A stretch of DNA of 64,000 bases from an uncultured Chloroflexia bacterium. Its GTDB lineage: Bacteria; Chloroflexota; Dormibacteria; CF-121. The stretch covers positions 138,917 to 202,916 of the forward strand of contig CAWCIV010000002.1 in the NCBI GenBank assembly GCA_963795805.1, given 5' to 3'. This document shows positions 7,300-43,647 of this stretch, piece by piece. Position 1 is the stretch's first letter. Every line of letters starts with the position of its first letter. Position numbers and translations under genes: made by a program. The notes beneath the pieces are model-generated. The model saw only the letters and a list, made by a program, of their open reading frames with translations. It was not told where the DNA came from and ran no database searches.

Positions 7300-7329
7300 T
7301 CAGCCGGTAACGAGAACACACGGAGAGCG

Positions 7330-7359: not shown

Positions 7360-7361
7360 AT

Positions 7362-9567
7362 TCACCCGGTCCCGACCGGCGTAAAGGCCCCCGCTCCCGG
7401 AACCAGCTCGACGATCCCGCGAAGGCCGGCCAAAAGGACCTGGCAGGACTTCAGGCTGTTGAGCAGCGGCCGCGCCGGAAGCCCATCTCGACTGGGGCTG
7501 GCCACCTGGATGACGGCGAGACACGGCGGCGCGCTCACGTCCCAATCCGGTGGGCCGCCGGCCGTGAAGATCGCCGCCGGGAGCGTCGCCGAAAAGGCGT
7601 GCCACGGACTGTCCGGCGGGATCACGGCGAGAGCGGCATCCGCCGCCTGGATGGCCCAGCTGCGCCCATCACCGAGCGGGCTGAGCCGGACGCCGGCCAG
7701 GCTGAGCGTTGGCGCGCCGCTGGTGATGGGAATGCCGGCCGCGGTGGCTTGCTGGATCACATTCCGAAGGGTCGGCGTCCACGGATCGGGATCGGCCACG
7801 ATGATCTCCGCGATTCGGAAGCGGGCCAGGATGGCGGCCGCCGCGCCCACGTGGAGACGCCGGCCACCCGTGATGATCCAGGCGCGTAGCTCGCGGGCGG
7901 TCGGCGGGAGCGCGCGGCCGATCGACTGGGCGAACTTGTCGCCGTCGGGTCCACCATCGATCAGGACCTGCTCACCTCCTCCGCTGCGGACCAGCACTGC
8001 CGATCCGGTTCCGACGTCGAGGGCATAGACATGCACGCGGCCGTCGGGGCTGATCAGCAGCAGCGCCGCGGCCAGCAGCGTTGTGATCCCGAGCACCGCC
8101 CAGACCTTGCGCTGCCAGAGGAAGATTCGCAGCCTGATGCCGGCCAGGGCGCCGCCATTGAGGATGCCGGCGGCTGCCAGCCAGCGGGCCGGGAAGTACG
8201 GCATCACGATGGCGGCGGCCGGCAGCGACCCGCAAGCCTGAATGACCCCCCGGAACCAGGCCGCCACGCCCCCGGCGAGTTGCAACGCGGGCCAGCCGGC
8301 CGGAGCGAGGATGGCGCCAAGGATGGCCCCTCCGCCACCGATCACCATCATCAAGGGCAGCAGCGGAAGCACCAGCGCGTTGGCCAGCGGGGCCACGATT
8401 GACAACTGGTGGAAGTTCGCGAGCATCAACGGCCAGGTTGCCGCCTCGGCAGCGATGGTCGCCGCAAATGGGTCCCGCAGCACCGCGGGAATCCAACCGA
8501 GGCGCGCCGCGATGCCATCGGTGAAGGTGGCGATCCCGACCGTCCCACTGAAGGACAGCAGGAAGCTCACGTCACGGGCGAGGTCGGGCTTGAGGGCGAG
8601 CATGATCGCGGCCGTCAGCGCCAGGGAAAGGTAGACGTGCGTGTCGCGCCGGAACCGGCCGGCAATCACGACCAGCGCGCCCATGGCGGCGGCCCGCAGC
8701 GCGGCGGCCGACGCGCCGGCGAGCAGGGCATAGATGACGATCACGGTGAGGGCGATGACGGGGGCGGCGCGAGGAAGAACCCGTCCGACCGAGCCGGTGA
8801 TGATGCGCGCGAGCAGCGAGACCTTGAGGCCGGAAATCACGACGATATGAATCAGCCCGCTGGCGATCATGGCCTGCTCGAGTGCCGGAGGGAGCGCAGC
8901 CCGATACCCGAAGACGACGCCGAGCAACAGGGCAGCCTGCGGTTCGGGCAAGGCGCGGTCGACCGAGCCGATCACGGCATGCCTGGCGGCGAAGAGCGCC
9001 GTGTGAAACGGGTCGCCCGAATGCGCCATGTTCCGCACCAGTCGGGCGGACGGCATGACGCCGGCGATGCCCTGTTCGGCCAGGTAGGCCCGGTAATCGA
9101 ACTGGTCGAAGCGCGGCGGCGGCTCGAGCGGCCCCGCCAGCAGCACGAGGTCCCCGTAGTGGATCGGCACGCCGCCATAGACCATCGCCTGGATACGGAG
9201 GTTTTGCGCCGCGGCGAGGGACACCCCGAGGATGCGATCGACCCGAACGCTGATCCGGGTTGCGTTGTGTCGCGGCTGCGGGTCGTCATCCACCATGCCC
9301 GCTACCGACTGCGGAGCGCTCGAAAGCCCGGGAGGCAACGCGACCGTCGGCGCCACCTGGGCACGGCCGGCGCCGAGCACGAACGCCAGCGAGGTGACGA
9401 ACACGACCAGCATCAGCGCTGGCCGCGCGACCGAGACCGCGATGGCGGCCACCAGCAGCAGCGACCGCGAGCGCCAGCATCACCGGCCTCAGCACGACGA
9501 CGGCCATGATGCCCGCGCTCCAGGCGAGCAGAAGCAGCCCGAACGTCCACCAGGGCAGCCGTCTCAC
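7362..9567 (-). pseudogene. comEC: ComEC/Rec2 DNA-internalisation competence protein, frame-interrupted near its 5' end as printed
   Basis: The 696-aa ORF (7362-9452) has the polytopic ComEC core plus a C-terminal metallo-beta-lactamase-like region (YALDVGTGSAVLV). A TM-like N-terminus MRRLPWWTFGLLLLAWSAGIMAVVVLRPVMLALAV starts at 9567 in another frame, with ATGA overlap to the comEA stop. The frames join if one base near 9462 is skipped. Confidence 0.8.
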
Positions 9568-18346: not shown

Positions 18347-20308
18347 TCAGACCTGGGTGCCGGCGTCCGTGACGGCTCGGCGCCAGGCATGCGGCGCCGC
18401 GGCCGCCCCACCCTCCAGCGCGCGGGGCCCGATCAGCCGGGCAATCTGGTCCTCATCAAGGACCTCTTCTTTGAGAAGGGCCTCAGCCAGCATGTCGAGT
18501 TTGGATCGGTTCGTGGTCAGGATCGACTCGGCAGCCTGATAGCCCTCGTTGAGCAGGCGGGTCACCTCTTCGTCGATGATCGCGGCGGTCCGCTGGCTGA
18601 CGTGGGGGCTGCCGGCTAGCTCCCGGCCGAGGAACACGGCACTCTGCGAGTCATCGAAGGAAAACAGTCCCATCTTTTTGCTCATCCCCCAGCTGACGAC
18701 CATCCGGCGCGCCAGCTCGGTGGCGGTCTCGAGGTCGTTCTGGGCGCCGGTCGTGATACTTCCCAGGGCAATCTGCTCCGCCGCGCGGCCACCGAGCGCC
18801 ATCGCGATGCGGCTCTCGAGATACTCTTCGGACAGGTTGTGCCGGTCATCCGTCGGGATCGACTGCGTCACGCCAAGCGCCATCCCGCGGGGGACGATCG
18901 TGATCTTGTGCACCGGATCAGACTGGGGTTGGTACCAGGCGACCAGCGCATGGCCGGACTCGTGGTAGGCGATGACTCGACGCTCGGCTTCACTCAAATA
19001 GATCTTTCGTTCCGAGCCGAGCACGACCCGGTCGAATGAGTCCTCGAAGTCATGCATGGTCACGGTCGTCCGGTTGGTGCGCGAGGCATGCAGGGCCGCC
19101 TCGTTCACCAGGTTCGCCAGGTCCGCGCCAACCAGACCGGGTGTCGAGCGGGCAATGATATCGAGATCGACGTCAGGGTCCACCGGGACGCCCCGGGTGT
19201 GGACTTTCAGAATGGCGGCGCGCCCGCGGCGGTCGGGACGATCGACCACGACGCGACGGTCGAAGCGACCTGGCCGAAGCAGGGCTGGATCGAGAACGTC
19301 GGCTCGGTTGGAGGCGGCCAGCACAACGACGGCCTCGCGCTGGTCGAAGCCATCCATCTCGACGAGCAGCTGGTTCAGGGTCTGCTCGCGTTCATCATTG
19401 CCGCCACCGAGACCGGCGCCGCGCTGGCGGCCGACTGCGTCGAGCTCGTCGACGAAGATCACGGCCGGGCTGTGCTTCTTGGCGTCCTCGAACAGGCTGC
19501 GGACACGGGAGGCGCCGACGCCAACGAACATCTCGACAAACTCCGACGCCGAGATGCTGAAGAACGGGACGCCCGCTTCACCGGCCACCGCGCGCGCCAG
19601 CAGCGTCTTGCCGGTACCGGGGGGGCCGATCAACAGGACGCCCTTGGGCATGTGGCCACCGAGCTTTTGAAATTTCTGAGGGTCGCGGAGGAATTCGACG
19701 ATCTCCTGGAGCTCGAATTGCGCCTGCTCGACACCGGCGACGTCGTGGAATGTCGTCTTGGGGGTCGCCGGGTCCTGAAGGCGCGCGCGGCTCTTACCAA
19801 AGGAAAAGATCCCCTGGGTGGCCTGTCCACTGCGCCGGATGAACCAGACCCAGAGACCGACCAGCACGAGGATTGGAAGGAAGCTGATCAGCAGGTTGCC
19901 CAGGCCGCCGGTATCGGTCTTGACCGTGGTCGTGACGTGGTTTTGACTCAGCGCCTGCCAGAAGGCCGGGTCGACCTGGCTGACGCCGTCCGGGACCGTC
20001 GCGTGGAACTGCGTCCCGGCGATGCTGTTATAGCTGAAACTGGAATTGAAGTCTCCGCTGGCATCCTGCCCCTGGATGGTGATGTCCTTGACGTTGCCCT
20101 TTAAGACCTGGGCCTGCAGCTCGGAGTAGGGAATGTCGACCCGCGGGGGGCCACCCAGGCGGCTGATCAAGGGCGAAGCCAAAAAGAAGACATAAATCGC
20201 CAGCCCTGCGACCAGCAGCGACAGCCGGAGACGGTTGTTCGGTCCCTTGGACGGGGTCGCATTGGGGTTCGGCTTGGGCGGGTTGGTCTGATCCGGACGG
20301 AGCGCCAT
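18347..20308 (-). CDS. ftsH: ATP-dependent zinc metalloprotease FtsH
   Basis: 653 aa with two N-terminal TM segments. GPPGTGKT, second region of homology, and HESGHAL zinc site. Confidence 0.95.
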
Positions 20309-20452: not shown

Positions 20453-20525
20453 GGGGCGATAGCTCAGCTGGCAGAGCGCTGCACTCGCATTGCAGAGGTC
20501 GAGAGTTCGAGTCTCTTTCGCTCCA
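20453..20525 (+). tRNA. tRNA-Ala (anticodon CGC), CCA not encoded
   Basis: GGGGCGA-TA-GCTC-AGCTGGCA-GAGC-G-CTGCA-CTCGCAT-TGCAG-AGGTC-GAGAG-TTCGAGT-CTCTT-TCGCTCC-A. G3:U70 is present. Confidence 0.9.
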
Positions 20526-20556: not shown

Positions 20557-21921
20557 TCAGGCGGCGGCTGGCAAGGCTCGAGGATCGACCTCGCTGGCAT
20601 CGATCGCTTCCTTCGCCTCCGGCTGCGCGATTCGCGCAAAGGCCGCCCAGATGACCATCGGCGCGGCGCCCGACACGACGATCACGATCCGGGCGAGCAG
20701 CAGCTGGTCAATGGGGGCGGCGAGCAGGAGAAAGAACCCGATGCTGAGGACGCGGCCGACGGCGAGGCACAGCTCCTGGTGGACGATGTACTCATAGCGA
20801 AGTGACCGCGCCTGCGGGTCCCGATCGATCACCTGCAGCGCGAGCGGCGCAAGCCCGTTGCCGTGCAGCGGGCCACCCAGGGCACGCAACAGCCCGAACG
20901 CCACCAGCGCCCACGCGGACAGATAGAGCGGCAGGACGAGCGTCGAGGCGACCAGCAAGGAGGCGCCGATCAAGGCGCACGCGATTCGGTGGCGCGGACG
21001 CATGTAGGCGGCCAGGACGAGGCTGGTTCCGACGCCCAGGATCCCCATGGTGCCGTTGAAGTTGCCCAGCTGCTGCTCGTTGTCGAGCACCAGGTAGGCG
21101 AGCACCGTCAGGACGACACCGCTGAGCATGCCGGAAAAGCCGTCGGCGAGCCGCGCGCCCATCACGTTCAGCCACGGCCGGTTCCGAAGGTGCAGCGTCG
21201 CCATGGTGTGGATCGAGAAGGCGGGCCGGTATCCGCACTTCAGCCGCCCGGCAAGCAGCATCGCGCCGATCATCAGGGCGGCCGCCAGTCCGAAGACCAC
21301 CTGGTAGCCGCGCTCCATGCCTCCCCAGTTCGCACCCAGCACGATGGCTGCGCCGGCCAACGGTGGTAGGCCGCCGCTGAGGAAGCAGTTGACCGCGCCC
21401 ATGGCGCCGAAATAGCGGTCGCGGTTGCCTTCGGTTGTCGAGTCATAGGTCGTGAGGTGAAAGCCTGCCCAGTACCAGCCCTCGCCCAGCCCGCGGAGCA
21501 GGCCGAGCGGGACGATCCAGTTGACGCTGTGGTTGCCGAGCCCGAGCACGGCGACGTACACGACGACAAGACAGCCGAGCCCGATGCGGATCGCCGTGCC
21601 GGCGCCGGCCCGCCTGAAGAGCAGGCCGTTGGCCAGGAAGGCGATCGGGATGGTGACGGCGCTGATCCAGGTGAAGAGGGCTACGCGCGCCAGGTCATGG
21701 CTGGCCTTCCACAGAAAGATGGATAAGAAGGTCGCCGCGAGCAGGTTGGCAGCCGTATAGGCGGCCGAGATCAACACCATGGTGGTCGCGGTTCGATCCA
21801 AGCCTCCCGACGTCGCCCTTACTGAAAACACGTCCCCTCTTTTCGCCGTGACCCGGCCCGTATCGGACAACGTCAGCGTGAGAACCCGCTTTCCCCGGTC
21901 ATCGGCCTGTGACCCGGTCAC
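20557..21921 (-). CDS. MFS-type transporter (polytopic membrane protein)
   Basis: 454-aa ORF with about 12 hydrophobic segments. Alternative start at ATG 21780 (MVLISAAY...). Divergent from the terpene operon. Confidence 0.5.
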   Translation of the reverse strand: MTGSQADDRGKRVLTLTLSDTGRVTAKRGDVFSVRATSGGLDRTATTMVLISAAYTAANLLAATFLSIFLWKASHDLARVALFTWISAVTIPIAFLANGLLFRRAGAGTAIRIGLGCLVVVYVAVLGLGNHSVNWIVPLGLLRGLGEGWYWAGFHLTTYDSTTEGNRDRYFGAMGAVNCFLSGGLPPLAGAAIVLGANWGGMERGYQVVFGLAAALMIGAMLLAGRLKCGYRPAFSIHTMATLHLRNRPWLNVMGARLADGFSGMLSGVVLTVLAYLVLDNEQQLGNFNGTMGILGVGTSLVLAAYMRPRHRIACALIGASLLVASTLVLPLYLSAWALVAFGLLRALGGPLHGNGLAPLALQVIDRDPQARSLRYEYIVHQELCLAVGRVLSIGFFLLLAAPIDQLLLARIVIVVSGAAPMVIWAAFARIAQPEAKEAIDASEVDPRALPAAA

Positions 21922-22020
21922 GCGGATTCGTCACCGGGAGGGTCCGAACCGCCGTGAAAACCGGCCCCAACGCGAGGCCGAAACGTTTGCCGCAACAGGC
22001 CGGCGGTAGCCTCCGCCTGA

Positions 22021-23593
22021 GCGCTGGGAAACGGCGCTCTCGAAAGGGAGCCAGAAACGGAACTCGCCGATCGTCACGTCCAGGCGCCGGAGCCGCGTCA
22101 ACGCGGGTCCCACCTCCCATTCCCGGCCGCCAGCCGGGAAATCCTTGCATCCCTCGACCGGGGCGCCATCTCGGCCGCCGCCTACGACACGGCGTTCGTG
22201 GCGCGGCTCCGTCACCCGGAACAGGCCGAGACCCTCGCCTACCCGAAGAGCCTCGCCTCCCTGCTGCGCGGCCAGAACCCCGATGGCAGCTTTGGGACCC
22301 GCCTCCCGATGCCCAAGGAGAAGTTGGTCTCCACCCTCAGCGCCCTGGTCGCGCTGGCCGACCTGCCAGCCTCGCTGCAGGACGGCGCCGCGCATCGCGC
22401 CCGGCTGGCCGCCCTCCGCTTCGTCTACGAAGACACCGCCAACTGGCAGACCGGCCCCGACACCGCCGGCTTCGAGTTGCTTCTGCCGGCCCTCCTCGAC
22501 GAGGCCACGTCCCGCGAGTTGCCCCTACCGTTTGAACGGTTTCGCGGCGTGATCGCCCAGCGGGATGCCAAGATCGGACACATCCCGCCCCGGCTGATCT
22601 ACACGGTCGACACGCCCCTCCTCCACAGCCTCGAATACCTCGGCAGCCGGATCGATGCGCAGGCGGCCCGCGGACGCCTCTGCCGGAACGGGTCCTTCGC
22701 GAACTCGCCCTCAGCGACCGCGTACTTCCTCCTGCACAGCAGCGACGCCAGGGCGACGGCGTACCTCGACGCGCTGATCAGCGCCCGCGGCGACGGCAGC
22801 GTGCCAACCGTCACCCCATTCGAGGTCTTCGAACGCGCCTGGGTCCTCTACAACCTCGCTCGGGCCGGCTTCATGCCGACCGACGCGGGGTCCCACGTGG
22901 CCTACCTCGCCCAGGCCCTCACCGACGACGGCGTGGGCGTCGCCAGCGAGGGGCTGCGGCCCGACTCGGACGACACCGCGCTCACGCTCAGCGTTCTGCA
23001 CCGGTACGGGTATCCGATCTCGATGGGGCCGCTGCGGCCCTTCGAAGGCATCAATTTCTTCTTCACGTTCCCCCTCGAACGTGACGCGTCTGTTACCGCC
23101 AATGCTCACGTGCTCGAAGTGCTCCGCGCCTGCGCCCCCTTCCCTCGCCAGCAGGTGATCGAGCAGAAGGTCGTGAAGTTCCTGCGCGACGCGCGGGTCG
23201 ACCAGAACCACTGGCTCGACAAATGGCACGTCTCGCCCCTCTACGCCACCGCCCATGCCACGTTCGCGCTGGCCGAAGCCGCGCCGGACGTCTGTTTGCC
23301 CGCCTACACCTGGTTCAAGAACAGCCAGCGCGACGACGGGTCGTGGGGCTGGTTCGACCAGGGGACGCCCGAGGAGACCGCCTACGCCGTCCAGGCGCTG
23401 CTCACCGCCCCGGAGTCGGTTCGGGCCGACTTCGACGCCAACTTGAGCCGGGCGGAGCAATACCTGAATGAAACGGAGGGTGAACTCGTCATCCCTATGT
23501 GGGTCGGCAAGACCCTGTACGCGCCGGATGAGGTCATTCGAGTCGGCGGTACTGTCGGCGCGGATTCTGCTGGCTCGGAGGTCGGTATGTTAG
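22021..23593 (+). CDS. Class II (protonation-dependent) terpene cyclase, labdane-type diterpene cyclase-like; start unresolved, one frame break near the 3' end
   Basis: ISAAAYDTAFVARL (upstream of the first canonical start GTG 22198). QW-like repeats QNPDGSFG, RGDGSVPT, QRDDGSWGW. DxDD is DSDD at 22963-22974. PMWVGKTLYAPDEVI then continues best in the +1 frame as ESAVLSARILLARRSVC* (stop 23591-23593). Confidence 0.7.
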
Positions 23594-24506
23594 ATCGGCG
23601 GATCGCCAAGCTCAAAGACAACCTGTTGCGGCAGGCCGACGAGGTCCGGGTCGTCCGGCACCTGGTCGACGACAATCCGCGGGGCGACGACATGCTGGGC
23701 GAGGTCTGCCGGGCCGCGGTCCTCCTGCACCCCGGGTCCACCTTCGAGCAGGCACTGACGCTGGCCCGGACGATGGCCTACATCGTCTACATCGATGACT
23801 TCCTCGAAGAGGAGCACCCGGAGTACGACCTGGGCGACTACCGCCGTGTCTGCCAGAACTTCCTGATCTGGCACAACCGCGACCTGAGCCAGATGCCGCT
23901 CGTCAACGCGACGGTGTCGCGCAAGGTCGAGGAGCAGTTCCTGGAAGATGAGGTCCCCGAAGAGTGGACGGCGATGCGCCGGCTGGTCTGGGAGAAATCG
24001 ATCTGGACGATGCTGCAGGAGAACCACTGGCTGAAACACAAGGAGCGCGTCACGCTCGACGCCTACCTCGCCAATGGCATGTACAGCAGCTCCTTCCCGA
24101 TCGTGCAGGTCAGCATCCTCGCCTTCTCCTACCAGGACGTCTCGCAGGAGCTGAAGAACCGGATCTTCGGCCACATCTGCCAGGCCTCCCGGGTGGTTCG
24201 GCTGGCCAACGACCTTCGTACGCACGAGCGCGAGGCGGCCCAGGGCCGATTCAACTCGGTCGACCTGATGCTGGCCGGCCAGCCCGACGGCACGCTCGAA
24301 TGCCGCGCGCGCCGCCGCCCGCCGCCTGATGGACGAGGAGTTCGAGATGCTGCAGAAGGCGGTCGCCAAGCGAGCGGCGCACGGGCGTCACCCAGCAGTT
24401 CCTCACCCACCTGATCGACAGCACCCAGGTGCTGCTGGACTTCTACGAAGTGCCGCGCAATCCGGCCCGGTCGGTCGGACCGGAGCCTGAAGGCGAGCTG
24501 ACCTGA
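23587..24506 (+). CDS. Class I (ionisation-dependent) terpene synthase; two frame breaks near the 3' end as printed
   Basis: GGAGG (23577-23581) plus 5 nt plus ATG 23587 (MLDRRIAKLKD). DDFLE at 23794-23808. NSE/DTE is NDLRTHERE at 24208-24234. The C-terminus is reconstructed as ...GQPDGTLE / AARAAARRLMDEEFEMLQKAVAKRA / RTGVTQQFLTHLIDSTQVLLDFYEVPRNPARSVGPEPEGELT*, with one base skipped near 24301 and one near 24377. In the ORF track it is fused to the class II gene (22198-24414). Confidence 0.7.
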
Positions 24507-24591
24507 CCATGGGCACCTCCATCAACCTCAAGCTCGTCGAAGCGCGCTGCGCCCGGCAAGCCGAACGAGCGCCGATTCCTCGGCGGTCGAG

Positions 24592-26934
24592 ATGGAGAAG
24601 CGCATCATCACGATCCGCTGGCTGGCCATCCTGCTCGCCACCGGCGCGCTGCCGTTCCTCAACCTCAAGGGCCAGACCATTCCCCTGATGGCGTTGATCG
24701 GCGTGGGCGCCGTGTACAACCTGCTCTTCCAGGTGTTCATCGTGCCGCGCAAGCCCGCCTGGCTGGAGCGCGGCTATATCTCGACCGTCGGCGACGTCCT
24801 GCTCGTGACCGGCGGCGTCGCGGTGACCACCGTGACCAACGGGCTCGAATCGCCGTTCTTCCTGGCCTATTTCGTGGTGACGGTGACCTCGGCCGTGCGC
24901 TTCGGTGGGGTTGCCGCGATCACCGCGGTCCTCACCATCATCCTGAGCTACAGCACGGTGGTCTTATGGTTCGACAGCGTCAAGGGCACCCCGCTGATCG
25001 CGGCGGACTTGACCGCCCTGGCGATGCGCACCGGGTTCGTGGCCATCACCGGCATCTTCGTCGGCTTCGTCGGTGACCGCGTTCGGCGGGCCGAGCAGGC
25101 CCTGCAGACGGAGCTCGACCGGGCGCATGCGGCGCTCTCCGAGGTCACGGTCGAACTCAACCGCGACCTGGAGTTCGAGCAAACCTGCCAGCTCACCGCC
25201 GAGAAGGGCCGGGGGCTGCTCAGCGCCGACGTGGTCCTGCTGCAGGTCCAGATGCCGTCTCTGATCGGCCAGGACGAGTCCGTCCCGCCCGCCTCCATGC
25301 TCTATATCGACTGGAGTCCCGAGCTGAAGGCCGCGCACGAAGGCACGGATATGAGCGCGGTGCGCCTCAACCTCCAGACCGCCACCACTGAGCAGGTCAT
25401 CCCCGTGCCCGACCCCAACGCGCTCGTTCCCTCGGATCACAAGCCGTTGCCCGCCGGGATGTGGGTTCGCGTGCCGGTTTTCCACGGCGCGCGCGCGATC
25501 GCCGATCTGATCTTCGGCTTCCAGGGCCGCGAGCAACCGCTACGCGAAACCGAACAGGACATCATGCTCACCTTCGCCGAACGCGCCGGCATCGCGATGC
25601 GCAACGCGCATACGCTCGACCAGGCCCAGAAGCTGTCGGTCACGGACTCGGTCACCGGGCTGCCGAACCACCGCTACTTTCACACCCGCTTCGACGAGGA
25701 GCTGGAGCGAACGCGCGACGCCGGTGGCTCGATCACCGTGATGATGATCGACCTCGACCGCTTCAAGGTCTACAACGACAGCTTCGGCCACGCCGCGGGC
25801 GACGTCGCGCTGAAGGCGGCCGCCCGCACGATCTCCTCGACGATGCGCCGAGAGGACACGGTCACCCGGTACGGCGGCGAGGAGTTCGTTGCGATCCTGC
25901 CCGGCGTCGACATCCAGACCGCCCCCATCCGAGCGCAGGAGATCTGCGACACCCTGGCCAAGGTGTTCATGTACAACCCCAAAACCATCTTTGCCCCGCT
26001 GACCGCCTCGGTCGGTTGGGCGACTTACCCGGTCGATGCCAAGAACCGCGACGAGCTGCTGAACCGCGCCGACCTGGCCATGTACATGGCCAAGAAGCGC
26101 GGGCGCAACTGCATCTGCGGCGCCTGCGAACTGGAGAGCGTCGCCGCGCTCGACTCCGTGCTCAGCGAGGTCGTCGCCCAGCTGGCCAGCGCCGACACGG
26201 TCGGCCCCGGCATGGTCGCCAACCTCGAGAAGCGCCTTGGCCAAATCGCCAACTCCAGCCATCTCGAGGAGCTGGCCGAGGGCATGCTCTCCCCCAACAG
26301 CGAGTCGACGCTGGAGGCGCTCAACGCGCTGGCGGCCTCGATCGACGCCAAGGACCCGTACACCAGCGGCCACTCCCAGTCGGTCGCCAAGCTCGCCGAA
26401 GACCTGGGCGACATGCTGCAACTCTCCGCGGCCCACAAGAACCAGCTTCGCCTCGCCGCCATCCTCCACGACGTGGGCAAGATCGGTGTGGTCGACAAGG
26501 TGCTGCTCAAGGAAGGCAAGCTGGATGAGGACGAGAAGCTGATCATGCGCATGCACCCCATCCTGGGCGCACGCATCCTGCAGCCGATCAAGGCCTTCCG
26601 CCAGATTCTCAACGTCGTCCTGCATCACCACGAGTGGTACGACGGGAGCGGCTATCCCGACGGCCTCGCGGGCCAGAACATCCCCCTGCACGCGCGCATC
26701 GTCTCCGTCTGCGATGCGTATCACGCCATGACCTCGACCCGACCCTATCGCCAGCGGCGCACGCCGGAGTTCGCGATGGCCCAACTCGAGGCCGGGAAAG
26801 GCACCCAGTTCGACCCCATCATCGTGGACTACTTCGTCCAGATGATGCGTCGGCGCGAGGCTGACCATCCGGGCATCCTCGAAGAGGAAGGCCACCAGCA
26901 GGACCACGGCCCGGACGCCGCGGCAGCGGGCTGA
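24592..26934 (+). CDS. Membrane sensor protein with GAF-like, GGDEF (diguanylate cyclase) and HD-GYP (c-di-GMP phosphodiesterase) domains
   Basis: 780 aa with about 6 N-terminal TM segments. I-site RRED followed by RYGGEEFVAILPG. HD-GYP region has HSQSVAKLAEDLG, HDVGKIGV and HHHEWYDGSGYPDGL. Confidence 0.85.
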   Translation: MEKRIITIRWLAILLATGALPFLNLKGQTIPLMALIGVGAVYNLLFQVFIVPRKPAWLERGYISTVGDVLLVTGGVAVTTVTNGLESPFFLAYFVVTVTSAVRFGGVAAITAVLTIILSYSTVVLWFDSVKGTPLIAADLTALAMRTGFVAITGIFVGFVGDRVRRAEQALQTELDRAHAALSEVTVELNRDLEFEQTCQLTAEKGRGLLSADVVLLQVQMPSLIGQDESVPPASMLYIDWSPELKAAHEGTDMSAVRLNLQTATTEQVIPVPDPNALVPSDHKPLPAGMWVRVPVFHGARAIADLIFGFQGREQPLRETEQDIMLTFAERAGIAMRNAHTLDQAQKLSVTDSVTGLPNHRYFHTRFDEELERTRDAGGSITVMMIDLDRFKVYNDSFGHAAGDVALKAAARTISSTMRREDTVTRYGGEEFVAILPGVDIQTAPIRAQEICDTLAKVFMYNPKTIFAPLTASVGWATYPVDAKNRDELLNRADLAMYMAKKRGRNCICGACELESVAALDSVLSEVVAQLASADTVGPGMVANLEKRLGQIANSSHLEELAEGMLSPNSESTLEALNALAASIDAKDPYTSGHSQSVAKLAEDLGDMLQLSAAHKNQLRLAAILHDVGKIGVVDKVLLKEGKLDEDEKLIMRMHPILGARILQPIKAFRQILNVVLHHHEWYDGSGYPDGLAGQNIPLHARIVSVCDAYHAMTSTRPYRQRRTPEFAMAQLEAGKGTQFDPIIVDYFVQMMRRREADHPGILEEEGHQQDHGPDAAAAG

Positions 26935-26948
26935 GGGCGCCCGCGCCC

Positions 26949-27998
26949 ATGGCCCTCGACGCCAACGGTCACCCCCTTTCGCGGATCTCGGAGCGGAAGC
27001 TTCAGCACCTGCGCCTCTCGCTCGAGGCATCGGTCCAGTCGACCCGCGGCGCCGGCTTCGACCGACTGGCCTTCACCCATCAAGCCCTCCCCGACCTCGA
27101 CCTCGACGCCATCGACCTGCGCGCTAGCTTTCTCGGTCACCCGCTGCATCTCCCGTTCCTGATCTCCAGCATGACCGGCGGCGCCCACGCGGCAGGCGAC
27201 ATCAACCGGCGACTCGCGCTGGTCGCACAGGCGATGGGGATCGCGTTCGGCGTTGGCTCTCAGCGCGCGGGCATCACGCACAAGGACCTCCGCTCGACCT
27301 ACCAGGTGCGCAGCGTGGCACCGGATGTGCTCCTCTTCGCCAACCTTGGCGCGGTGCAGCTGAACTACGGCATGCGCAAGGAGCAGTGCCTCGAGGCGAT
27401 CGAGATGATCGGCGCCGATGCGCTCATCCTCCACCTGAATCCGCTCCAGGAGGCCCTCCAACCAGAGGGCGATCATAACTTCCGCGGCCTGCTGGAGAAG
27501 ATTGCCGAGCTCTGCACGGAGCTCCCGGTCCCGGTGATCGTCAAAGAAGTTGGTTGCGGAATTTCGGGTGAGACCGCGAGGCTGCTGGCCGACGCCGGCG
27601 TGGCCGCCATCGACGTCGCCGGGATGGGCGGGACGAGCTTCGCCCGTGTCGAGGCGATGCGCCGAGAGCGGCCCGAGGAGGTCGAGCTGGCGCTCGCCTT
27701 TGCCGAGTGGGGCATCCCAACCTGCGATGCCATCCGCGCCGTCCGCCAGGCGGCGCCGGCCACGCCCGTGATTGCGAGCGGTGGCCTGCGACACGGTCTC
27801 GATGCGGCCAAAGCGGTCGCGCTTGGCGCCGAGCTCACCGGCTTCGCCCACGTGGTTCTTGCCGCCGCCACCGAGAGCGAGGCGGCCGTTCGGCTGGTGC
27901 TGGACGGCTTTGCCTGGCAACTTCGGGTTGCGATGTTCTGCGCCGGGGCGCAGGATCTCGCCGCCCTCCGCGCTGTGGCCCTGCACGAGGTCCGATGA
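26949..27998 (+). CDS. fni: Type 2 isopentenyl-diphosphate delta-isomerase (FMN-dependent)
   Basis: 349 aa. ISERKLQHL, FLISSMTGG, VKEVGCGIS, AIDVAGMGGTSFA and IASGGLR. Confidence 0.85.
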   Translation: MALDANGHPLSRISERKLQHLRLSLEASVQSTRGAGFDRLAFTHQALPDLDLDAIDLRASFLGHPLHLPFLISSMTGGAHAAGDINRRLALVAQAMGIAFGVGSQRAGITHKDLRSTYQVRSVAPDVLLFANLGAVQLNYGMRKEQCLEAIEMIGADALILHLNPLQEALQPEGDHNFRGLLEKIAELCTELPVPVIVKEVGCGISGETARLLADAGVAAIDVAGMGGTSFARVEAMRRERPEEVELALAFAEWGIPTCDAIRAVRQAAPATPVIASGGLRHGLDAAKAVALGAELTGFAHVVLAAATESEAAVRLVLDGFAWQLRVAMFCAGAQDLAALRAVALHEVR

Positions 27999-29038
27999 CC
28001 AAGACCAAAGTCTTCGCCAACCGAACCGATCGCCTCCAGGCGATGAACGATGCACTCGACCGCGAGCTGGGCCGCCTCTCCCAACAGGCGGGATCGAGTC
28101 AGAGTGCGCTGCTGACGGAGATGGTCCAGTATCACCTGGGGCTGCGCCGGACCGGCCACCGGCCGGGAAAGCGGCTGCGGGCCAACATCGCGCTGCTGAC
28201 CTGCGAGGCGTTTGGGCGGCGCTACGCGGAGGCGCTCTGGGCCGGGGTCGCGGTCGAGCTGGTGCACAACTTCTCCCTCGTGCTCGACGATGTCCAGGAC
28301 GGCGACGAGTTGCGTCGCGGGCGCCCCGCGGTCTGGAAGGTCTGGGGAACCGGCCAGGCGATCAATGCCGGGGCGGCGCTGGAGGCCCTCGTGACGCGGT
28401 CGGTGGTCGACCTGCTGCCGGCGCGGCACGCCGATCGAACTCGGCCTGCGCTGTCGCTGCTCTCCGAGGCGATGCTCGCCCTTTGCCGCGGCCAGGTGCT
28501 TGATCTCCAGTTCGAGCAGCGCATCGACGTCTCCGTCGACGAGTACCTGGAGATGATCTCTCTCAAGACCGGCGCGCTGTTCGAGTGCGCGGCGCGCCTT
28601 GGCGGGGTTGCCGCCGGCGCGGGCGAGGCGAGCCTCGATCGGGCGGGACATTTCGGTCACCACCTCGGCCTGGCCTTTCAGGTGATCGACGACATCCTCG
28701 GTGTCTTCGGCTCGACCCAACAGACCGGTAAGCGCGTCGGGAGCGACCTGAAGAATGGGAAGAAGACGCTGCCCACCCTGCATGCCCTGCGCAACGGCCC
28801 GGCCGGTAACCGTCGGGTGCTCCGCTCCCTGCTGACGCGTGCCAGGTTCAGCGCCGAGGAGCTGGAGACCGCCCGCGCCATCATCGCCCAGTCCGGGGCG
28901 CAGCAGGTTTGCCGCCGGCAGGCGTCCGAACACCTGGCCGAGGCCCGCCTCCACCTGTTCTCCATGACCGAGCGGCCCAACTGGGCAGTCCGGGCGCTCG
29001 CCGACATGGTGACGACGCTCGAATCGGCCCTCGGCTAA
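27995..29038 (+). CDS. Short-chain polyprenyl diphosphate synthase (GGPP synthase-like)
   Basis: Starts MTKTKVFANRTDRL, with ATGA overlap to the fni stop. First Asp-rich motif LVLDDVQDGDELRRGRP, with Phe at position -5. Second motif FQVIDDILG. Confidence 0.8.
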   Translation: MTKTKVFANRTDRLQAMNDALDRELGRLSQQAGSSQSALLTEMVQYHLGLRRTGHRPGKRLRANIALLTCEAFGRRYAEALWAGVAVELVHNFSLVLDDVQDGDELRRGRPAVWKVWGTGQAINAGAALEALVTRSVVDLLPARHADRTRPALSLLSEAMLALCRGQVLDLQFEQRIDVSVDEYLEMISLKTGALFECAARLGGVAAGAGEASLDRAGHFGHHLGLAFQVIDDILGVFGSTQQTGKRVGSDLKNGKKTLPTLHALRNGPAGNRRVLRSLLTRARFSAEELETARAIIAQSGAQQVCRRQASEHLAEARLHLFSMTERPNWAVRALADMVTTLESALG

Positions 29039-29088
29039 GCCAGCATGGCCGGCCGTGAGAGAATAGATTTGGAAGGGGCCAGCGTCCA

Positions 29089-29864
29089 ATGCGCATGCCC
29101 AACCGGCGATCAATGAGCTATATCATCTGGGTTCTCCTTGCCCTCCTTGCGCTTGGCCAGCCGGCCGTGAAGACGTCGGCGGCGGCAACGACGGCCAGCG
29201 AGGTCCTCGGCACGCAGGCAACTCCGGCCGATCAGGCCTTTCGCGGGAAATCCTACGTGGCGCTCGGCGACAGCATCAGCGCCGGGCGCTACGCCACCAC
29301 CGCGGATAAGGTCTTTCCCGCGCTGGTCGCGGCGCAGCTCGGGATGAACCTCAACCTGATGGCGAGGAGCGGGGCGAAGGCCGCCTGGGCGCATCCCTCA
29401 ACTGGCGGCGATCGACCAGCGGCACCCTGCGCTCGTCACCATCGAGCTCGGGACCAACGACGTCGGTTTCCAGACACCGGTGGCCGATTTCACCAGCCAG
29501 TACGAGACGATCGTCGACCGCTCTGGCGGTGCCTGGTACGCGGCTGCTCTGCATCGGCAGCTGGCTGCCGTCACCGCTCGTATCGACGACATCATTTCCG
29601 GCATCTGTGAGCGACACGGCGGCAACTTCGTCAGCCTTTCGGGATTCTACGGCGACAGCAGCCTGCATGCCGCAGACGGCGCTCCCGTCTATCTCGGTCG
29701 TGCTGACTGGTTTCACCCAGGCGATGCGGGCCACGCGGCGATTGCCCAGGCGGTACTGGCGAGCCTCGGATCGGAGGTGCCGATGCCCGAGCTGGAGAGT
29801 CCCACAGCCCCAGCCCCCGGCCGCGCCCGGGGGACCCGACGTGATCCGCATCACGCCCCGGTAG
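29089..29864 (+). pseudogene. SGNH/GDSL-family hydrolase (secreted), frame-interrupted as printed
   Basis: Signal-like IIWVLLALLALGQPAV. Block I is YVALGDSISAG. After AKAAWA the protein continues in the +1 frame as IPQLAAIDQRHPALVTIELGTNDV...DWFHPGDAGHAAIAQAV, skipping one base near 29392. More frame changes are possible at 29525-29580. The 3' end is uncertain. Confidence 0.65.
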
Positions 29865-31535
29865 AGACCGGACGCTCCCCGGGTCGGGGCCGCCGCTGCG
29901 CCGGATCGAGCACCTCGTCGATCTTGACCGCCAGGTGCAGCGTCAGGCGAACGTCGGCATCTCGCAGGTCCCTGCTCAGGATCGTCTCGATCCGGCCAAG
30001 CCGGTAGAGCACGGTGTTCCGGTGCAGGTGGAGGTGGTCGGCGGCATCGGTCGGACTGCCGTTGGCCGCCAGGTAGGCCCGCAGCGTGGCGACCAGCACC
30101 CCACCCCGGTCTGCCTGCTGAAGCGGTGCCAGGATGTCGTCGCGAAAGCTGCGCAGCTCAGGCTGGGCCTGCATCCCGAACAGGAAGCGGTAGAGGCCGA
30201 GATCACTGAAGGCGGTGGCCGCCTGGGGGCCGCTCAGGCGGCGTCCCATCTGGAGCGCCTGTTCCGCCTCACGGGCCGCGGCTGAGACGCCCGCCATCCC
30301 CGAACGCACCGCCCCATACCCGACCGCAACCGGCCCGCCGGCGGTCGCCTCGCGCGGTGCGGTGGAACTGGTCGACCAGCGGGCGGGGATCCGGGAGGCC
30401 GCTTGCCGGCCAGGCTGATCAGCGCCAGGATCAGGTCGCCCCGGTCACGCACCAGCGCGTTCAACCGCATGGTGCCAAGCTGCCGTTCCCAGGCGAGGCG
30501 GATGGCGTGAGCCTGACCGCCCTGGCCCGCTTCGGCCGCCAGCACCAGGTAAGGCGCGTCGACATCGAACCCCTTGCGCTTCGCCCGCTCGCGAGCGGCC
30601 TCCTGGGAGCCGGGCCGGGCGGCCGTCAGCACATCGAGCAATTCTTCTTCGACCTCGTCGCGGGCGTCGCGGGCCGCCCGGACGCGGACCAACTCGATCG
30701 CGCAGGCGTGGGCGGCACGGCCGACCGCCAGCCGGTGGAGCTCGCCGAGCTCCCCGTCCGATCCGAGCAGCGAGACGAAGCCCGCGATGCTCCCCTGCAC
30801 CAGGATCGGCGCCACCAGGCGCGACTGCCCGTCGGGCAGGGGACGGGACGAGACGGGGGGATCGAAGGCCGAAAGGGGCACGTCCCGCAACCACGTGTCC
30901 AGCGCCGGACGGTCGCGCGCGATCACCGCCGCCACCGCCGCCGGAAGCTCGCGTGCCGGACCATTGGGAACGTAGTCGAGGGCGGACTCGCGCTCGAGCA
31001 GCACGCCGACGCCGGTGAGCTCGCTGAGCCGGTGCAGCAGCGGGCGAAGACCCCGCCCTGCCAGCGCCAGCTCGCTCAGCTGCCGATGGAGGTCCTGGGC
31101 GCGCTCGTGTAGCTCGGCCCGGCGGTCGATGATGTAGCGCAGCACCCGCTGCTCCACCTCATCCAGCGGCGGGACGGCCGGCAGGGCGAGGAGGGGAAGC
31201 CCGGTGTCCTCGGCAACCCGGCGGGCGTCGTCCGGGACCGCGCCCCGCACGGCGACCCCCGCCACCCCCTGGCCCCCCACCGACGTCAAGAGGCGAGGCA
31301 GGCTCAGCTGCGGGTCGAACGCCCTGAGCGTCGAAGGATCGATCAGGAGCAGCTCGCCCCCGCGGAGCGGCTCGAACGCCGGCGGCCGGGTGCGGAGCGT
31401 CGTACACCATCCGACCTCGCGCCGCAAACTGGAGCCGCCCGCGATCAGCGTGGTGGCGGCTGGTAGGGCGCCGTGCCACACGTCGTCGACGGTTACATGA
31501 GGCTGGGTGGGGGCACCGGCGGTGAGGGCCTGCAT
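29851..31535 (-). pseudogene. PucR/CdaR-family transcriptional regulator, two frame breaks as printed
   Basis: The N-terminal and middle parts are in ORF 30234-31535. The C-terminal HTH (HLHLHRNTVLYRLGRIETIL) is in ORF 29851-30309. The bridge reads ...LISLAGK / GLPDPRPLVDQFHRTA / EATAGGPVAVGYGAVRSGMAGVS..., with one base skipped near 30401 and one near 30352. Confidence 0.7.
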
Positions 31536-41038: not shown

Positions 41039-43647
41039 CTATCCGGGCGTTTCGCCCAAGAGCTTCTGAAGCCGCTCGGCGGCCTCCTTGGCCTGGGCCA
41101 GGCGGACTCGTTCGCGGTCAACGACCGAGGCCGGCGCCCGCCCGGTAAAGTCCGGATTTCGCAGCTTCCCCTCGATTAACTCGATCTCGTCCCGTTTCTT
41201 TCGCAATTCGGCACCCAGCCGTTTCGCCTCGAGCCCCCGGTCCGCCGGCAGGCCGAGGGTGACGGTGGTATCACCGACGACCACCGTCCGCCGCGGCGCG
41301 TCGGCTGGAAGCGTCCCGTTGAGATCGAGTTGAGCCAGCGTGGCGAGGTACTGGCGTCCCACCGGATCCGCCAGCAAGGAGCGGTTCGATTGGATCTGGG
41401 CGGGCTGACGCCGCATCGCCGGGTCGGCAGCGTGCCGGACACTGCGGACCGCCCGGACCACGTCGAGCAGATGGGCCATTTCGTCCAGCAGCACGCGATC
41501 CTCCAGGCGCTCGTCCACGAGCGGCCATGGAGCCAGGACGATCGTCTCGCCCACGTGAGGGATTCGCTGCCAGAGCTCCTCGGTCACAAACGGCATGATC
41601 GGGTGCAGCAGGCGAAGCGTCGTCTCGAGGACATGGATCGCGACGGCGCGGGCGGTGGTCGCCGATGCCGTGCCCGCCTGCAGGCGCGGCTTGATCAGTT
41701 CGAGGTAATCGTCGGCAAACTCGTGCCAGGCGAACTCGTAGAGGCCGTCGATTGCGGGACCGAATTCAAATCGGCTGAACGACTCGCTGACGAGCCGGGT
41801 CACGGCGCTCAGCCGCCCCAGGATCCAGCCGTCCGCCGGCTCGAGGCTGCCCTCAGCAATCGGGATCGGCATGGCGCCTTCGGCAATCCCGGAGAGCAGC
41901 AAGCGCGTCGCATTCCAGAGCTTGTTGGCGAACAGTTGATAGGACTTGATCTTTTCCTCGGAGAACCGGATATCCTGCCCACTCGTCCCAAAGTAGGCGC
42001 ACCAGGCCCTCGTCGCATCGGCGCCATAGCGATCGATCATCTGGAGCGGATCGACACCGGTCCCCAGCGATTTGCTCATCCGGCGCCCGTCCGGGGCCAG
42101 CACCGTCCCATGGATGATGACGTCCGAAAACGGCTCCTTGTCCAGGAAATACAGGCTGGTGAAGATCATCCGCGCCACCCAGAGGTACAGGATGTCGCGC
42201 GCCGTATCCAGCACCTGGGTGGGATAGAAGCGGGCGAGGTCCTCCGTCTCCTGTGGCCAGCCGAGTGTCGCAAACGGCCACAGCGATGAGGAGAACCAGG
42301 TGTCGAGGACGTCGGGATCCTGGGTCAGCGTCCGGTCCCCGCATTGCTTCACAGGCCTTCGGCGCCTGCTCGTAGGCGACCGCGTGACCGTTGGCGCAGG
42401 TCCATACCGGGATGCGGTGGCCAAGCCAGAGCTGGCGGGAGATACACCAGTCTCGAATGTTGCGCATCCAGCGGAGGTATTGCTCCTTCCAGCGGCCCGG
42501 ATGGAAGCGCACCTCATCCCTCTCGGCGACCGCGATCGCCGGCTCCGCCAGGGGTTTCATCCGGACCCACCACTGGGATGAGACCAGCGGCTCGATCACG
42601 GCGTTGCAGCGGTCGCAGTGGCCGACCGAGTGGTGGTACGGTTCGACCCGATTGAGCGCGCCTTCGGCTCGCAGCATCTCGACGATCCGTTCTCGCGCTT
42701 GCGGCACCTTGAGGCCGTCGAGCTCTGAAACCTCCGGGATGTCCATGCGGCCATCCAGGTGCAAGATGTTGCGGACCTCGAGCTTCTGCCGCTCGCCAAT
42801 CTCGTAGTCGGTCAGGTCGTGCCCGGGCGTCACCTTGACCGCGCCGGTGCCGAACGCCATGTCGACCGCATCGTCAGCCACGATCGGAACCTGTCGATGC
42901 ACGACAGGGAGCGTCACCATCCTGCCGACGAGGTCGCGGTAGCGGGCATCCTTCGAATTGACGGCGACCCCGGTGTCGCCCACCATCGTTTCCGGGCGCG
43001 ACGTGGCCACCGAGATCACGCCGCCGCCTTCGATCGGGTAGTCGAGGTAATAGAGATGGTCATCCGTCTCGACGAACACGACCTCCAGGTCCGAGATGGC
43101 GCTCTGGTCATCGCGGGCACCAGTTGACGATGCGTGGACCGCGATAGATCAGGCCGGCTTTCCAGAACCGGACGAAGGCGGCATTGACCGAGGCCACGTA
43201 CTCGGGATCCATCGTGAACCGGTTGCGCGACCAGTCGGCGGAAAAACCCAGCCGCCGCATCTGCCGCAGGATGGTGTCGCCGGTTTTCTGATACCAGTCC
43301 GCGACCAGGCGGTCCCAGGCCTCCCGGCCAATCGCCTCCTTCGAGGCGTGTTGTTTCGCCAGTTGCTTCTCGAGTACGTTCTGCGTCGCGATCGCCGCGT
43401 GATCGGTCCCCGGAACCCAGAGCACGCAGTCGCCGAGCATCCGATGCCAACGGACCAGGACGTCCTGCAGGGTGTACATCGCGTGCCCCATGTGCAGGTC
43501 GCCGGTGATATTCGGCGGCGGCATCGAGATCGTGAAGGTCTTCCCGGTGAGACTTTCGCGCGGCTTGAAGTAGCCCGCCTGCTCCCAGGTTGCATACCAC
43601 CGCTGCTCGACCGCCCGGGGGTCGTACCGGGTGTCCATCAAGGGCAC
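41039..43647 (-). pseudogene. valS: Valine--tRNA ligase, split over three frames as printed
   Basis: The N-terminal part is ORF 43108-43647 (PPPNITGDLHMGH). The middle is ORF 41853-43079 (TSRPETMVGDTGVAV). The C-terminal part is ORF 41039-42517 (DPDVLDTWFSS, KMSKSLG-type RMSKSLG, coiled-coil tail). Junctions lie near 43108-43117 and 42353, and each needs one base skipped. Confidence 0.9.

Follow-up and report, generated by a model that had tools for sequence, protein, structure and literature searches.

A candidate bicyclic diterpenoid operon with a cyclic di-GMP sensor gene in Candidatus Dormibacteraeota

Organization of the gene cluster

The DNA studied here is a stretch of 64,000 nt (G+C content ~67%) from an uncultured bacterium of the Chloroflexota, referred to below as the window. 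Its subject is a run of genes between 20.5 and 31.5 kb, whose layout was taken from the listing of open reading frames (ORFs) of the window, and which probably directs the synthesis of a bicyclic diterpenoid. Starting at the 5′ end of the run, the forward strand encodes a diterpene cyclase of class II (type B) that belongs to the Rv3377c family (22057–23593, with 22057 as the probable start), delineated by sequence matches in the PDB and a map of single-base insertions, and then a class I terpene synthase (23587–24501; 303 aa once corrected), assigned from PF19086, PF03936, its homologues and its fold. The strand continues with a gene for a membrane protein comprising sensor, weak GAF, GGDEF and HD-GYP regions (24509–26934), identified by Pfam, NCBIfam and motif matches, within which an ORF of 780 aa is intact in the raw sequence (24592–26934). 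After 14 nt this is followed by a 349-aa ORF for a type-2 isopentenyl-diphosphate isomerase (IDI-2; 26949–27998; TIGR02151 equivalog). The IDI-2 stop codon overlaps the start of the next gene as ATGA (27995), and this encodes a short-chain trans-polyprenyl diphosphate synthase (27995–29038; PF00348) that is probably a geranylgeranyl diphosphate (GGPP) synthase. A further 50 nt separates it from a gene for a GDSL-family hydrolase, and the whole run lies between a divergent MFS transporter gene and a convergent PucR-family regulator gene.

An earlier note on this DNA, made from the letters alone, had given this gene order, the strands, these three junctions and the two flanking genes, and the ORF list, coordinates and family matches agree with it on these points. 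It had also remarked on the lack of a P450 or other oxidase; none is present within the run, and a sample of 20 large ORFs from other parts of the window has neither a P450 or other oxidase nor further terpenoid or mevalonate genes.

Single-base insertions and the apparent gene fusion

In the raw sequence a single ORF (22198–24414, 738 aa) covers both terpene enzymes, with no stop codon between the two domains. Fused bacterial enzymes are known (PMC11469919, PMC12164552), and the ORF might be taken for a genuine gamma-beta-alpha bifunctional protein, like those bacterial enzymes or the plant terpene synthases (TPSs). Nucleotide alignment with the closest long contig (L001, from a Candidatus Dormibacter metagenome-assembled genome (MAG)) indicates otherwise. 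Extra bases are located at ~23540 in the region encoding the C-terminus of the class II enzyme, at 24301, 24371 and 24458 in that of the class I enzyme, at 24535 and 24566 at the N-terminus of the GGDEF gene and at 29391, 29518, 29581 and 29798 in the GDSL gene, and at 30351 and 30389 in the PucR gene. There are at least 13 single-base insertions in ~11 kb of the window; every lesion is +1, and none falls within a homopolymer. Housekeeping genes are affected too: Lon is split near 16860, and valyl-tRNA synthetase (ValRS) is cut to a C-terminal ORF (41039–42517).

The 738-aa ORF exists because the insertion at ~23540 removes the class II stop codon. Three-frame translation reveals that the cyclase's C-terminal helix runs on in the +1 frame (LYAPDEVIR, followed by SAVLSARILLARRSVC and a stop). 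The corrected stop codon TAG (23591–23593) overlaps the class I ATG at 23587, an overlap of 7 nt, and the corrected protein can be aligned over its whole length with diterpene cyclases of known structure, whereas the fusion frame swaps out this conserved helix (LYxPxxVxxSAvLSA). Relatives in the databases are always two proteins, a class II enzyme of 464–515 aa and a class I enzyme of ~303 aa; among the matches listed, 120 class I homologues range from 132 to 344 aa and the class II homologues are all below 560 aa. The genes overlap by 7–20 nt in related contigs. Since the same type of insertion also breaks the class I, GGDEF, GDSL, PucR and Lon genes, a true fusion is scarcely credible, and the two enzymes are separate genes in need of correction, as the earlier note had supposed. 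Correction also places the class I stop at 24499–24501 and the ATG of the GGDEF gene at 24509; the gap of 86 nt that had been described at this point is an effect of the indels, and the true gap is 7 nt, as in the relatives.

Protein identity to relatives remains 78–96% in the shifted frames, and once the frames are corrected no in-frame stop codon is found in any frameshifted gene. From the all-insertion pattern, the high identity in shifted frames and the damage to Lon and ValRS, we therefore read the apparent fusion and the breaks in five genes as single-base insertion errors or very recent lesions of this sequence. Alternatively the frameshifts could be real and the cluster in this genome a decaying pseudogene array without a product, for which the number of insertions and their position outside homopolymers might speak. 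This is most improbable, given that the lesions are exclusively +1, that the corrected frames are open and well conserved, that housekeeping genes are damaged as well and that a long-read-like contig (L089) is fragmented likewise, a pattern that fits assembly error. That contig (ENA contig_67353, 2594–9441) is itself rich in frameshifts, its genes being broken into small called genes; the run carries GGDEF, HD-GYP, class I, class II, response regulator and sensor kinase together.

The class II cyclase

The class II enzyme matches SQHop_cyclase_C with 31.5 bits (cut-off 26.1). Its best match among solved structures is 6vpt (E = 3.8e-56, 194 bits), followed by the ent-copalyl diphosphate synthase (ent-CPS) PtmT2 (5bp8; E = 1.7e-41, 146 bits) and the terpentedienyl diphosphate synthase Tpn2 (7xkx; E = 7e-33, 117 bits). 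Each of these alignments spans residues ~20–457, corresponding to the beta-gamma didomain. The 6vpt structure is that of Mycobacterium tuberculosis Rv3377c, a halimadienyl diphosphate synthase (PMC9585517). Sequence comparison places the cyclase with the ‘terrabacterial’ Rv3377c subfamily of Stowell et al. (PMC9814783), and not with the copalyl diphosphate (CPP) synthases.

The DSDD motif (22963–22974) aligns with DCDT of 6vpt and DSDD of 5bp8, that is, with the catalytic DxD(D/T) position, and its first and third aspartates are invariant across 18 homologues. QW-like motifs are found at 22273 (QNPDGSFG) and 23326 (QRDDGSWG). The cyclase has both the activating histidine, H341 in Rv3377c, and the (D/E)KW motif, and a tyrosine encoded at 23518 corresponds to Rv3377c Y479.

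A single residue switches between labdane and clerodane products, at PtmT2 D502, Tpn2 G485 and Rv3377c A475 (PMC9814783). The aligned position here is a glycine (MWVGKTLY, nt 23506). Glycine or alanine is the rule in the Rv3377c family, and the gibberellin-type ent-CPP synthases break the switch-residue rule (PMC9814783). As the residue is glycine and not aspartate, a rearranged skeleton is favoured, and the product is more likely to be of halimane or clerodane type than of labdane type. Homologues carry the JGI annotation halimadienyl-diphosphate synthase; orthology with that enzyme is not established, because histidine replaces Rv3377c F171 (LLHSLEY, nt 22624). The closest partly characterized relative is Nitrolancea hollandica I4EKS1 (40% identity), cited from a thesis as a clerodane-type synthase (PMC12164552). 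A His/Asn ‘catalytic dyad’ rule for labdane versus clerodane products was also considered. The histidine is present, but the rule fails in bacterial enzymes (PMC9814783) and was not used.

The class I synthase

Like its class II partner, the class I enzyme matches the families expected for it above their cut-offs, with 52.7 bits for Terpene_syn_C_2 (cut-off 23.7) and 45.1 bits for Terpene_synth_C (cut-off 26.3). The metal-binding motif DDFLE (23794–23808), placed by the full-length Pfam and Foldseek alignments only, corresponds to a family consensus DDYLE in which D70 and D71 are invariant. The second motif, NDLRTHERE (24208–24234), has invariant N208 and D209, and in the alignment its counterpart in isoprene synthase is NDLASASAE, an example of the NSE/DTE motif found in plant synthases. 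The positions of these two motifs and of DSDD had been given exactly in the earlier note, and both DSDD and the NSE motif align with catalytic positions of known enzymes.

An AlphaFold2 model of the enzyme has an all-helical alpha fold (pLDDT 74.4, pTM 0.70). Foldseek relates it with probability 1.0 to class I synthases (9kgb, 7e4n, 6oh8) and plant alpha domains, with TM scores of 0.56–0.67, consistent with the class I assignment that had been made from the motifs. Tolypothrichol synthase (9kgb), Sat1646 and LrdC rank highest among the folds, ahead of the plant domains; LrdC presumably acts on a class II product. Acceptance of copalyl diphosphate is documented for Sat1646 (PMC9814573).

Among 1.84 billion cluster representatives, a profile built from 25 family members recovered one full-length 50% cluster together with fragments. 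Within the family the mean column identity is 76%, and DD(Y/F)LE and ND..(S/T)...(E/D) are retained. On the basis of these searches the enzyme is an isolated, lineage-restricted orphan family.

By profile, the C-terminal half of the enzyme matches plant TPS alpha domains, with E values down to 7e-9; these include isoprene, sesquisabinene, bisabolene and limonene synthases. Solved bacterial synthases match the profile more weakly, the best being Sat1646 (4e-4).

Precursor supply and chain length

IDI-2 exceeds the equivalog cut-off of TIGR02151 (402.5 bits; cut-off 281.3), and the prenyl synthase matches polyprenyl_synt (PF00348) with 223.5 bits (cut-off 27). The best NCBIfam models of the latter are GGPP and short-chain types, with scores of 217 bits for IdsB (cut-off 475), 207 for GGPP_syn (500) and 282 for an encapsulin-cargo prenyl transferase (450). 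A link to encapsulins suggested by the last of these, the top match, was rejected; the score is under the cut-off and there is no encapsulin gene nearby. The first aspartate-rich motif (FARM) region, ELVHNFSLVLDDVQDGDELRRG (ELVHNF-SLVL-DDVQD-GDEL-RRG), has phenylalanine at −5, no aromatic residue at −4 and no two-residue insertion. Phenylalanine at −5 without the insertion is the FARM pattern of type I (archaeal-type) GGPP synthases. The scores lie below the GGPP-synthase equivalog cut-offs, so the C20 chain length has to be deduced from this pattern, and on this evidence the protein is probably a GGPP synthase. Together with IDI-2 it may also feed the general isoprenoid supply, although the earlier note's description of the cluster as self-contained is a reasonable one.

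The low equivalog scores, together with the orphan status of the class I family, would suit a different reading, that these are indeed terpene synthases but that the product is not labdane-related, either because the chain length differs or because a linear prenyl diphosphate is the direct substrate of the class I enzyme. Against this, the characterized ~500-aa beta-gamma cyclases of the family all use GGPP (PMC9814783). This reading also sits poorly with the FARM pattern, with class II and class I genes that overlap or abut in every lineage examined, and with closest folds that are class I enzymes acting on class II products (documented for Sat1646, assumed by us for LrdC). We consider it improbable, and a C20 substrate cyclized by the class II enzyme is preferred.

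Conservation and chromosomal setting

The named relatives of the cluster are Candidatus Dormibacteraeota MAGs, some of them deposited as ‘Chloroflexi’. Where there is enough flanking sequence, the order in these loci is MFS (reverse), class II, class I, GGDEF/HD-GYP, IDI-2, prenyl synthase, GDSL and PucR (reverse), with PucR missing from one locus. The run is conserved in all related genomes examined, synteny being a check that the earlier note had suggested, and the order is maintained down to 59% class I identity. Downstream the Dormibacteraeota loci continue into rsfS-nadD-obg-rpmA-rplU; upstream, the window and L001 have lon-ftsH. The fixed place among housekeeping genes, and the order kept at 59% identity, therefore point to a vertically inherited locus and not an island.

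The secreted GDSL-family hydrolase gene (29089–29864, forward strand, end approximate) is broken, with Lipase_GDSL_2 matches on two overlapping ORF fragments that are both under the cut-off in the window; intact orthologues in relatives are 218–257 aa and match PF00657 and PF13472. The PucR-family regulator gene (29857–31535, reverse strand, end approximate) is also broken, its tblastn pieces being spread over three frames. It has PucR (47 bits) and GGDEF_2 matches, and the intact orthologues (514–557 aa) additionally have HTH_30. The MFS transporter gene (20557–21921, reverse strand; start probably at 21831 by homology) has a match to Pfam MFS_1 that is under the cut-off (E = 4e-6). Its product is 86% identical over 425 aa to that of L001, and the gene is found in all Dormibacteraeota loci with sufficient upstream sequence. 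At the upstream border of the cluster, ftsH and the MFS gene are separated by a tRNA gene (20453–20525, forward strand). Elsewhere in the window a second Lon-like protease paralogue (43774–46041, reverse strand) has 51% identity to the Lon encoded beside ftsH.

The c-di-GMP sensor protein and its recurrence beside cyclase pairs

The signalling protein (807 aa) begins with five or six predicted membrane helices containing conserved polar residues, a region with marginal Pfam similarity to DUF4118. This is followed by a long helix and a weak GAF match (E = 0.0099, under the Pfam cut-off), and then by GGDEF (147.7 bits) and HD_5 (132.1 bits) domains, typical of cyclic di-GMP (c-di-GMP) turnover. 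The GGDEF and HD-GYP parts of the architecture proposed in the earlier note are borne out; the GAF part is not secure. The GGEEF motif is at aa 428, with an I-site RRED (RxxD) five residues upstream, and the HD-GYP signature residues are intact (HDVGK at aa 626; HHEWYDGSGYP). The GGEEF, RxxD, HD and GYP motifs are preserved in all orthologues, and the protein is 96% identical to that of L001. The N-terminal region is modelled by AlphaFold2 with low confidence (pLDDT 61, pTM 0.35).

Relatives of the class II enzyme were scanned in one genome per species and their neighbours mapped. Class II/class I pairs have a full-length orthologue of the sensor protein next to them in a JGI contig (L009; 37% identity including the membrane part, without IDI, GGPP synthase or GDSL genes), in a Thermobaculum MAG, in a Rubrobacter MAG and in Ferroacidibacillus organovorans. 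In an unclassified MAG (L055) the sensor is fused to a histidine kinase. Three Chloroflexia/Chloroflexota MAGs also have the sensor–histidine kinase fusion, with a GGDEF/HD-GYP or PAS-GGDEF-EAL gene adjacent; two of these MAGs have the GGDEF-type gene downstream, and the third has it upstream of class I. A Nitrolancea contig terminates in a convergent HD-GYP fragment. Sensor and c-di-GMP enzymes thus accompany class II/class I pairs in at least four lineages besides Dormibacteraeota, and in a neighbour-joining tree of class II proteins the sensor-linked loci fall into several separate clades. Comparison of the loci shows the GGDEF/HD-GYP gene, listed in the earlier note as one item of the run, to be the most persistent partner of the cyclase pair. 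Incomplete coverage of the literature yielded no report of GGDEF or diguanylate cyclase genes in diterpene clusters.

In Ferroacidibacillus organovorans SLC66 (locus L041, 5618–19696) the spoVR gene is split by a 12.5-kb insert into an N-part (5618–6442) and a C-part (18965–19696). Within the insert, genes for a large serine recombinase, the class I and class II enzymes, the sensor-GGDEF-HD-GYP protein, a prenyl synthase, an MFS transporter, an FGGY kinase and LacI follow one another in this order. The insert is reminiscent of intervening elements of the sporulation type, here with a terpene/c-di-GMP module as cargo, and the placement between the split halves of spoVR indicates that the module has moved as a unit on such an element.

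A profile search with the sensor domain gave an output saturated by fragments of close relatives. In a reverse search with two distant sensor homologues, one lies in a locus of class I, class II, response regulator, kinase, GGDEF and HD-GYP genes, and the other at a contig end. The 22 loci in which a search with the Chloroflexia sensor found a class II gene are the closest relatives of the query, and more distant subfamilies occur in unrelated contexts.

The wider, unnamed sensor family includes L148:6827–8257, L129:6761–8203 and ~35 other metagenome loci without terpene genes, its members being fused to histidine kinases or GGDEF domains.

The GGDEF/HD-GYP gene could be a bystander in the operon, functionally unconnected with the terpenoid. 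In favour of this, these phyla commonly carry GGDEF and HD-GYP genes, the sensor family is also found away from terpene genes, and no c-di-GMP receptor or riboswitch was found in the cluster. Against a bystander role, the spacing of 7–10 nt after class I is kept in L001, L002 and L007 (it is 41–96 nt in L005 and L008). Moreover, full-length orthologues follow the class II/class I pair in distant lineages that lack the IDI, GGPP synthase and GDSL genes, the c-di-GMP genes stay adjacent even where the Chloroflexia sensor is fused to a histidine kinase, and in Ferroacidibacillus class I, class II, the sensor protein and a prenyl synthase travel together on the spoVR element. On balance a bystander is unlikely, though far from negligible, and a functional pairing of the gene with the terpenoid is the reading followed below.

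The 5′ leader, a probable ACG start and a candidate operator

Upstream of the class II gene lies a structured 5′ leader (21976–22056, forward strand), recognized by a covariance model and by covariation. Proceeding 5′ to 3′ it comprises a GNRA-capped hairpin P1 (~21989–22000), a hairpin P2 of the form GGC-NGUA-GCC (22002–22011), and a variable hairpin P3 (22019–22039) contained within CCUCC…GGGGG and preceded by the C-rich CCUCC. A Shine–Dalgarno-like AGGGAG follows (22045–22050). The covariance model finds exactly one copy in each Dormibacteraeota locus (24/24, 76–124 bits; for example L020:9773–9908), nothing in ~60 other loci, and none elsewhere in 1.3 Mb.

The structure was drawn by hand and refitted with the covariance model, and the refitted alignment, which leans towards that structure, has 76.7% of cells paired (35–53% with slid partners) and a covariation of 0.226, compared with 0.110 ± 0.016 in shuffles (0/500). 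In the raw MAFFT alignment 72% of cells are paired and the covariation is 0.148 (0.099 in the comparison), and RNAalifold on this alignment returns just three uninformative pairs. Compensatory changes occur at all 8 pairs of P3, and one pair of P2 undergoes a GC to CG swap in four sequences. The region 21700–22300 of the window and five related loci have no match in Rfam 15 (including c-di-GMP-I and -II) at E ≤ 1. We regard the leader as a candidate for a new cis-regulatory RNA.

At its 3′ end the leader has an invariant AAGGGGG (AGGGAG in the window), and an invariant ACG occurs 5–8 nt later. This ACG (22057) is in frame with the class II ORF in 24/24 loci, 41–45 codons before the sequence AYDTA, and ORFs read from it are 511–515 aa. 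ACG is not among the start codons of translation table 11. There is no ATG, GTG or TTG between the upstream stop codon and the ACG in 17 loci, and in at least 10, the window included, the first canonical start comes after AYDTA (22198, compared with 22180 for AYDTA). In the window the essential AYDTA helix is included in the protein only if translation begins at the ACG. L012 instead has an AUG four codons upstream of the ACG, which has arisen inside the G-run. Translation of the cyclase from a conserved non-canonical ACG codon is probable. The Shine–Dalgarno sequence before it could pair with either of two conserved C-rich strands.

Further upstream, a block of conserved columns in a 10-locus alignment (21898–21935, no strand assigned) contains GTCATCGGCCTGTGAC at 21898–21913 and TCGTCACC at 21928–21935. 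It lies in the divergent region between the MFS and cyclase genes and has an inverted-repeat-like GTCAT-N6-TGTGAC plus an extra GTCAC half-site. This is a candidate operator that may serve the PucR regulator.

DISCUSSION

Candidatus Dormibacteraeota probably inherit this cluster vertically, as an operon for the synthesis of a bicyclic diterpenoid from GGPP. The compact route from isopentenyl and dimethylallyl diphosphates (IPP and DMAPP) to a cyclized C20 product put forward in the earlier note is supported by family, motif, fold and synteny, with chain length and substrate deduced. Each step of the pathway is proposed from sequence. IDI-2 would balance IPP and DMAPP, and the prenyl synthase would make GGPP. 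This would be protonated by the middle aspartate of the DSDD motif of the class II enzyme and cyclized to a bicyclic diphosphate, most likely a rearranged halimadienyl- or clerodienyl-type diphosphate, which the class I enzyme would ionize at the metal sites of its DDxxE and NSE motifs to give a diterpene olefin or alcohol. The protein with sensor, diguanylate cyclase and HD-GYP regions would tie c-di-GMP levels to the terpenoid or to whatever condition demands it. We take the MFS pump, the secreted GDSL hydrolase and the PucR regulator to be lineage-specific accessories. At the 5′ end, expression appears to be under the control of the structured leader and the weak, invariant ACG start.

Several observations weigh against this interpretation. 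The prenyl synthase scores below every GGPP equivalog cut-off (217–282 bits against 450–500). Beyond its own cluster, the class I profile gives matches with E ≥ 3e-9 in the C-terminal half only, and there is no characterized relative. This copy contains at least 13 frameshifts and may be non-functional should they be real. Lastly, the search with the Chloroflexia sensor found a class II gene directly upstream in 22 of the 58 metagenome loci that have upstream sequence; with the unrelated contexts of the distant subfamilies, the terpene linkage therefore belongs to particular subfamilies and not to the whole sensor domain family.

The link between terpenoid and c-di-GMP could take the form of a diterpene that is the sensed ligand, of co-regulated outputs, or of a common tie of both to the state of the membrane. 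More specifically, the diterpene might be a self-made membrane or diffusible signal, sensed by the polytopic domain that sets c-di-GMP, in a circuit found across several Terrabacteria phyla and gated by the leader and ACG in Dormibacteraeota. We offer this tentatively, as a possibility that is more doubtful than probable. If it is true, the output would be direct in Dormibacteraeota, Thermomicrobia, Rubrobacter and Ferroacidibacillus, and would pass through a histidine kinase in Chloroflexia.

Few bacterial labdane-related diterpenoids are known, and almost nothing is known of their benefit to the producer. Recurrent sensor and c-di-GMP enzymes beside cyclase pairs provide a concrete, testable link between terpenoids and a second messenger, and Ferroacidibacillus organovorans, a Firmicute, is cultured, so that the link can be tested. 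That the cluster is fixed in the core genome of a soil phylum which is uncultured and abundant worldwide suggests a physiological role and not sporadic secondary metabolism; nothing specific on terpenes of Dormibacteraeota was found in the literature searched. The class I enzyme represents an unexplored sequence family, and the likeness of its C-terminal half to plant TPSs may bear on the bacterial origin of the latter. Both the leader RNA and the ACG start are candidates for new features of regulation. Finally, a false ‘bifunctional’ enzyme that owes its existence to one inserted base can mislead genome mining and automated gene calling, and at the same time illustrates the fusion step proposed for the origin of plant TPSs.

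Comparison with known systems

The 1-tuberculosinyladenosine (1-TbAd) locus of M. tuberculosis (Rv3377c-Rv3378c, with IdsB nearby) also has a GGPP-type synthase clustered with a class II enzyme. Rv3377c is the best solved match of the present cyclase, and the two share a non-acidic residue at the A475 position and the tyrosine Y479. They differ in that the motif here is DSDD and there DxDT, and in the histidine that takes the place of F171. The second enzyme is a class I alpha-fold synthase here, whereas Rv3378c has a prenyltransferase fold; and there is no gene for nucleoside conjugation here, but a c-di-GMP sensor gene.

The terpentecin cluster (tpn/cyc), with the clerodane class II enzyme Tpn2/Cyc1 and the class I enzyme Tpn3/Cyc2, follows the same sequence of GGPP synthase, class II and class I enzymes, with genes of precursor supply clustered. 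Its class I enzyme simply eliminates diphosphate, and glycine occupies the G485 switch position in both systems (PMC9814783). In contrast, Tpn2 is a weaker match to the cyclase than Rv3377c, and tpn has P450s and a ferredoxin where there is no oxidase here.

Haur_2145-2147 of Herpetosiphon aurantiacus, the O-methylkolavelool genes, is similar by description: a Chloroflexi-type host, adjacent class II and class I genes, and a rearranged clerodane alcohol formed without P450s. It differs in having a methyltransferase, and no c-di-GMP gene is reported there. Haur_2145 belongs to the gibberellin-type ent-CPS subfamily and not to that of Rv3377c (PMC9814783).

The order class II then class I is likewise that of the fused bacterial enzymes ChjDCS, CseDCS, StrDCS and bAbS, and of the overlapping genes for copalyl diphosphate synthase and kaurene synthase (CPS-KS) of rhizobia. 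The class II stop and class I start overlap by 4 nt in the gibberellin operon (PMC11469919). The overlap of 7 nt here corresponds to the pre-fusion arrangement discussed for the origin of plant TPSs. Unlike the fused enzymes, the genes here are separate, and the artefactual fusion would delete the last class II helix.

The Rpf/diffusible signal factor (DSF) system of Xanthomonas consists of the synthase RpfF, the sensor kinase RpfC and the HD-GYP protein RpfG. By analogy, genes for synthesis of a lipophilic molecule stand in both cases beside those for a membrane sensor and an HD-GYP phosphodiesterase, and the likeness extends to the Chloroflexia variants, in which a sensor kinase gene is followed by GGDEF/HD-GYP genes. 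There is no sequence relationship between the two systems, and the small molecule here would be a diterpene. As an analogy of function, Rpf/DSF is the closest for the pairing of a terpenoid with c-di-GMP.

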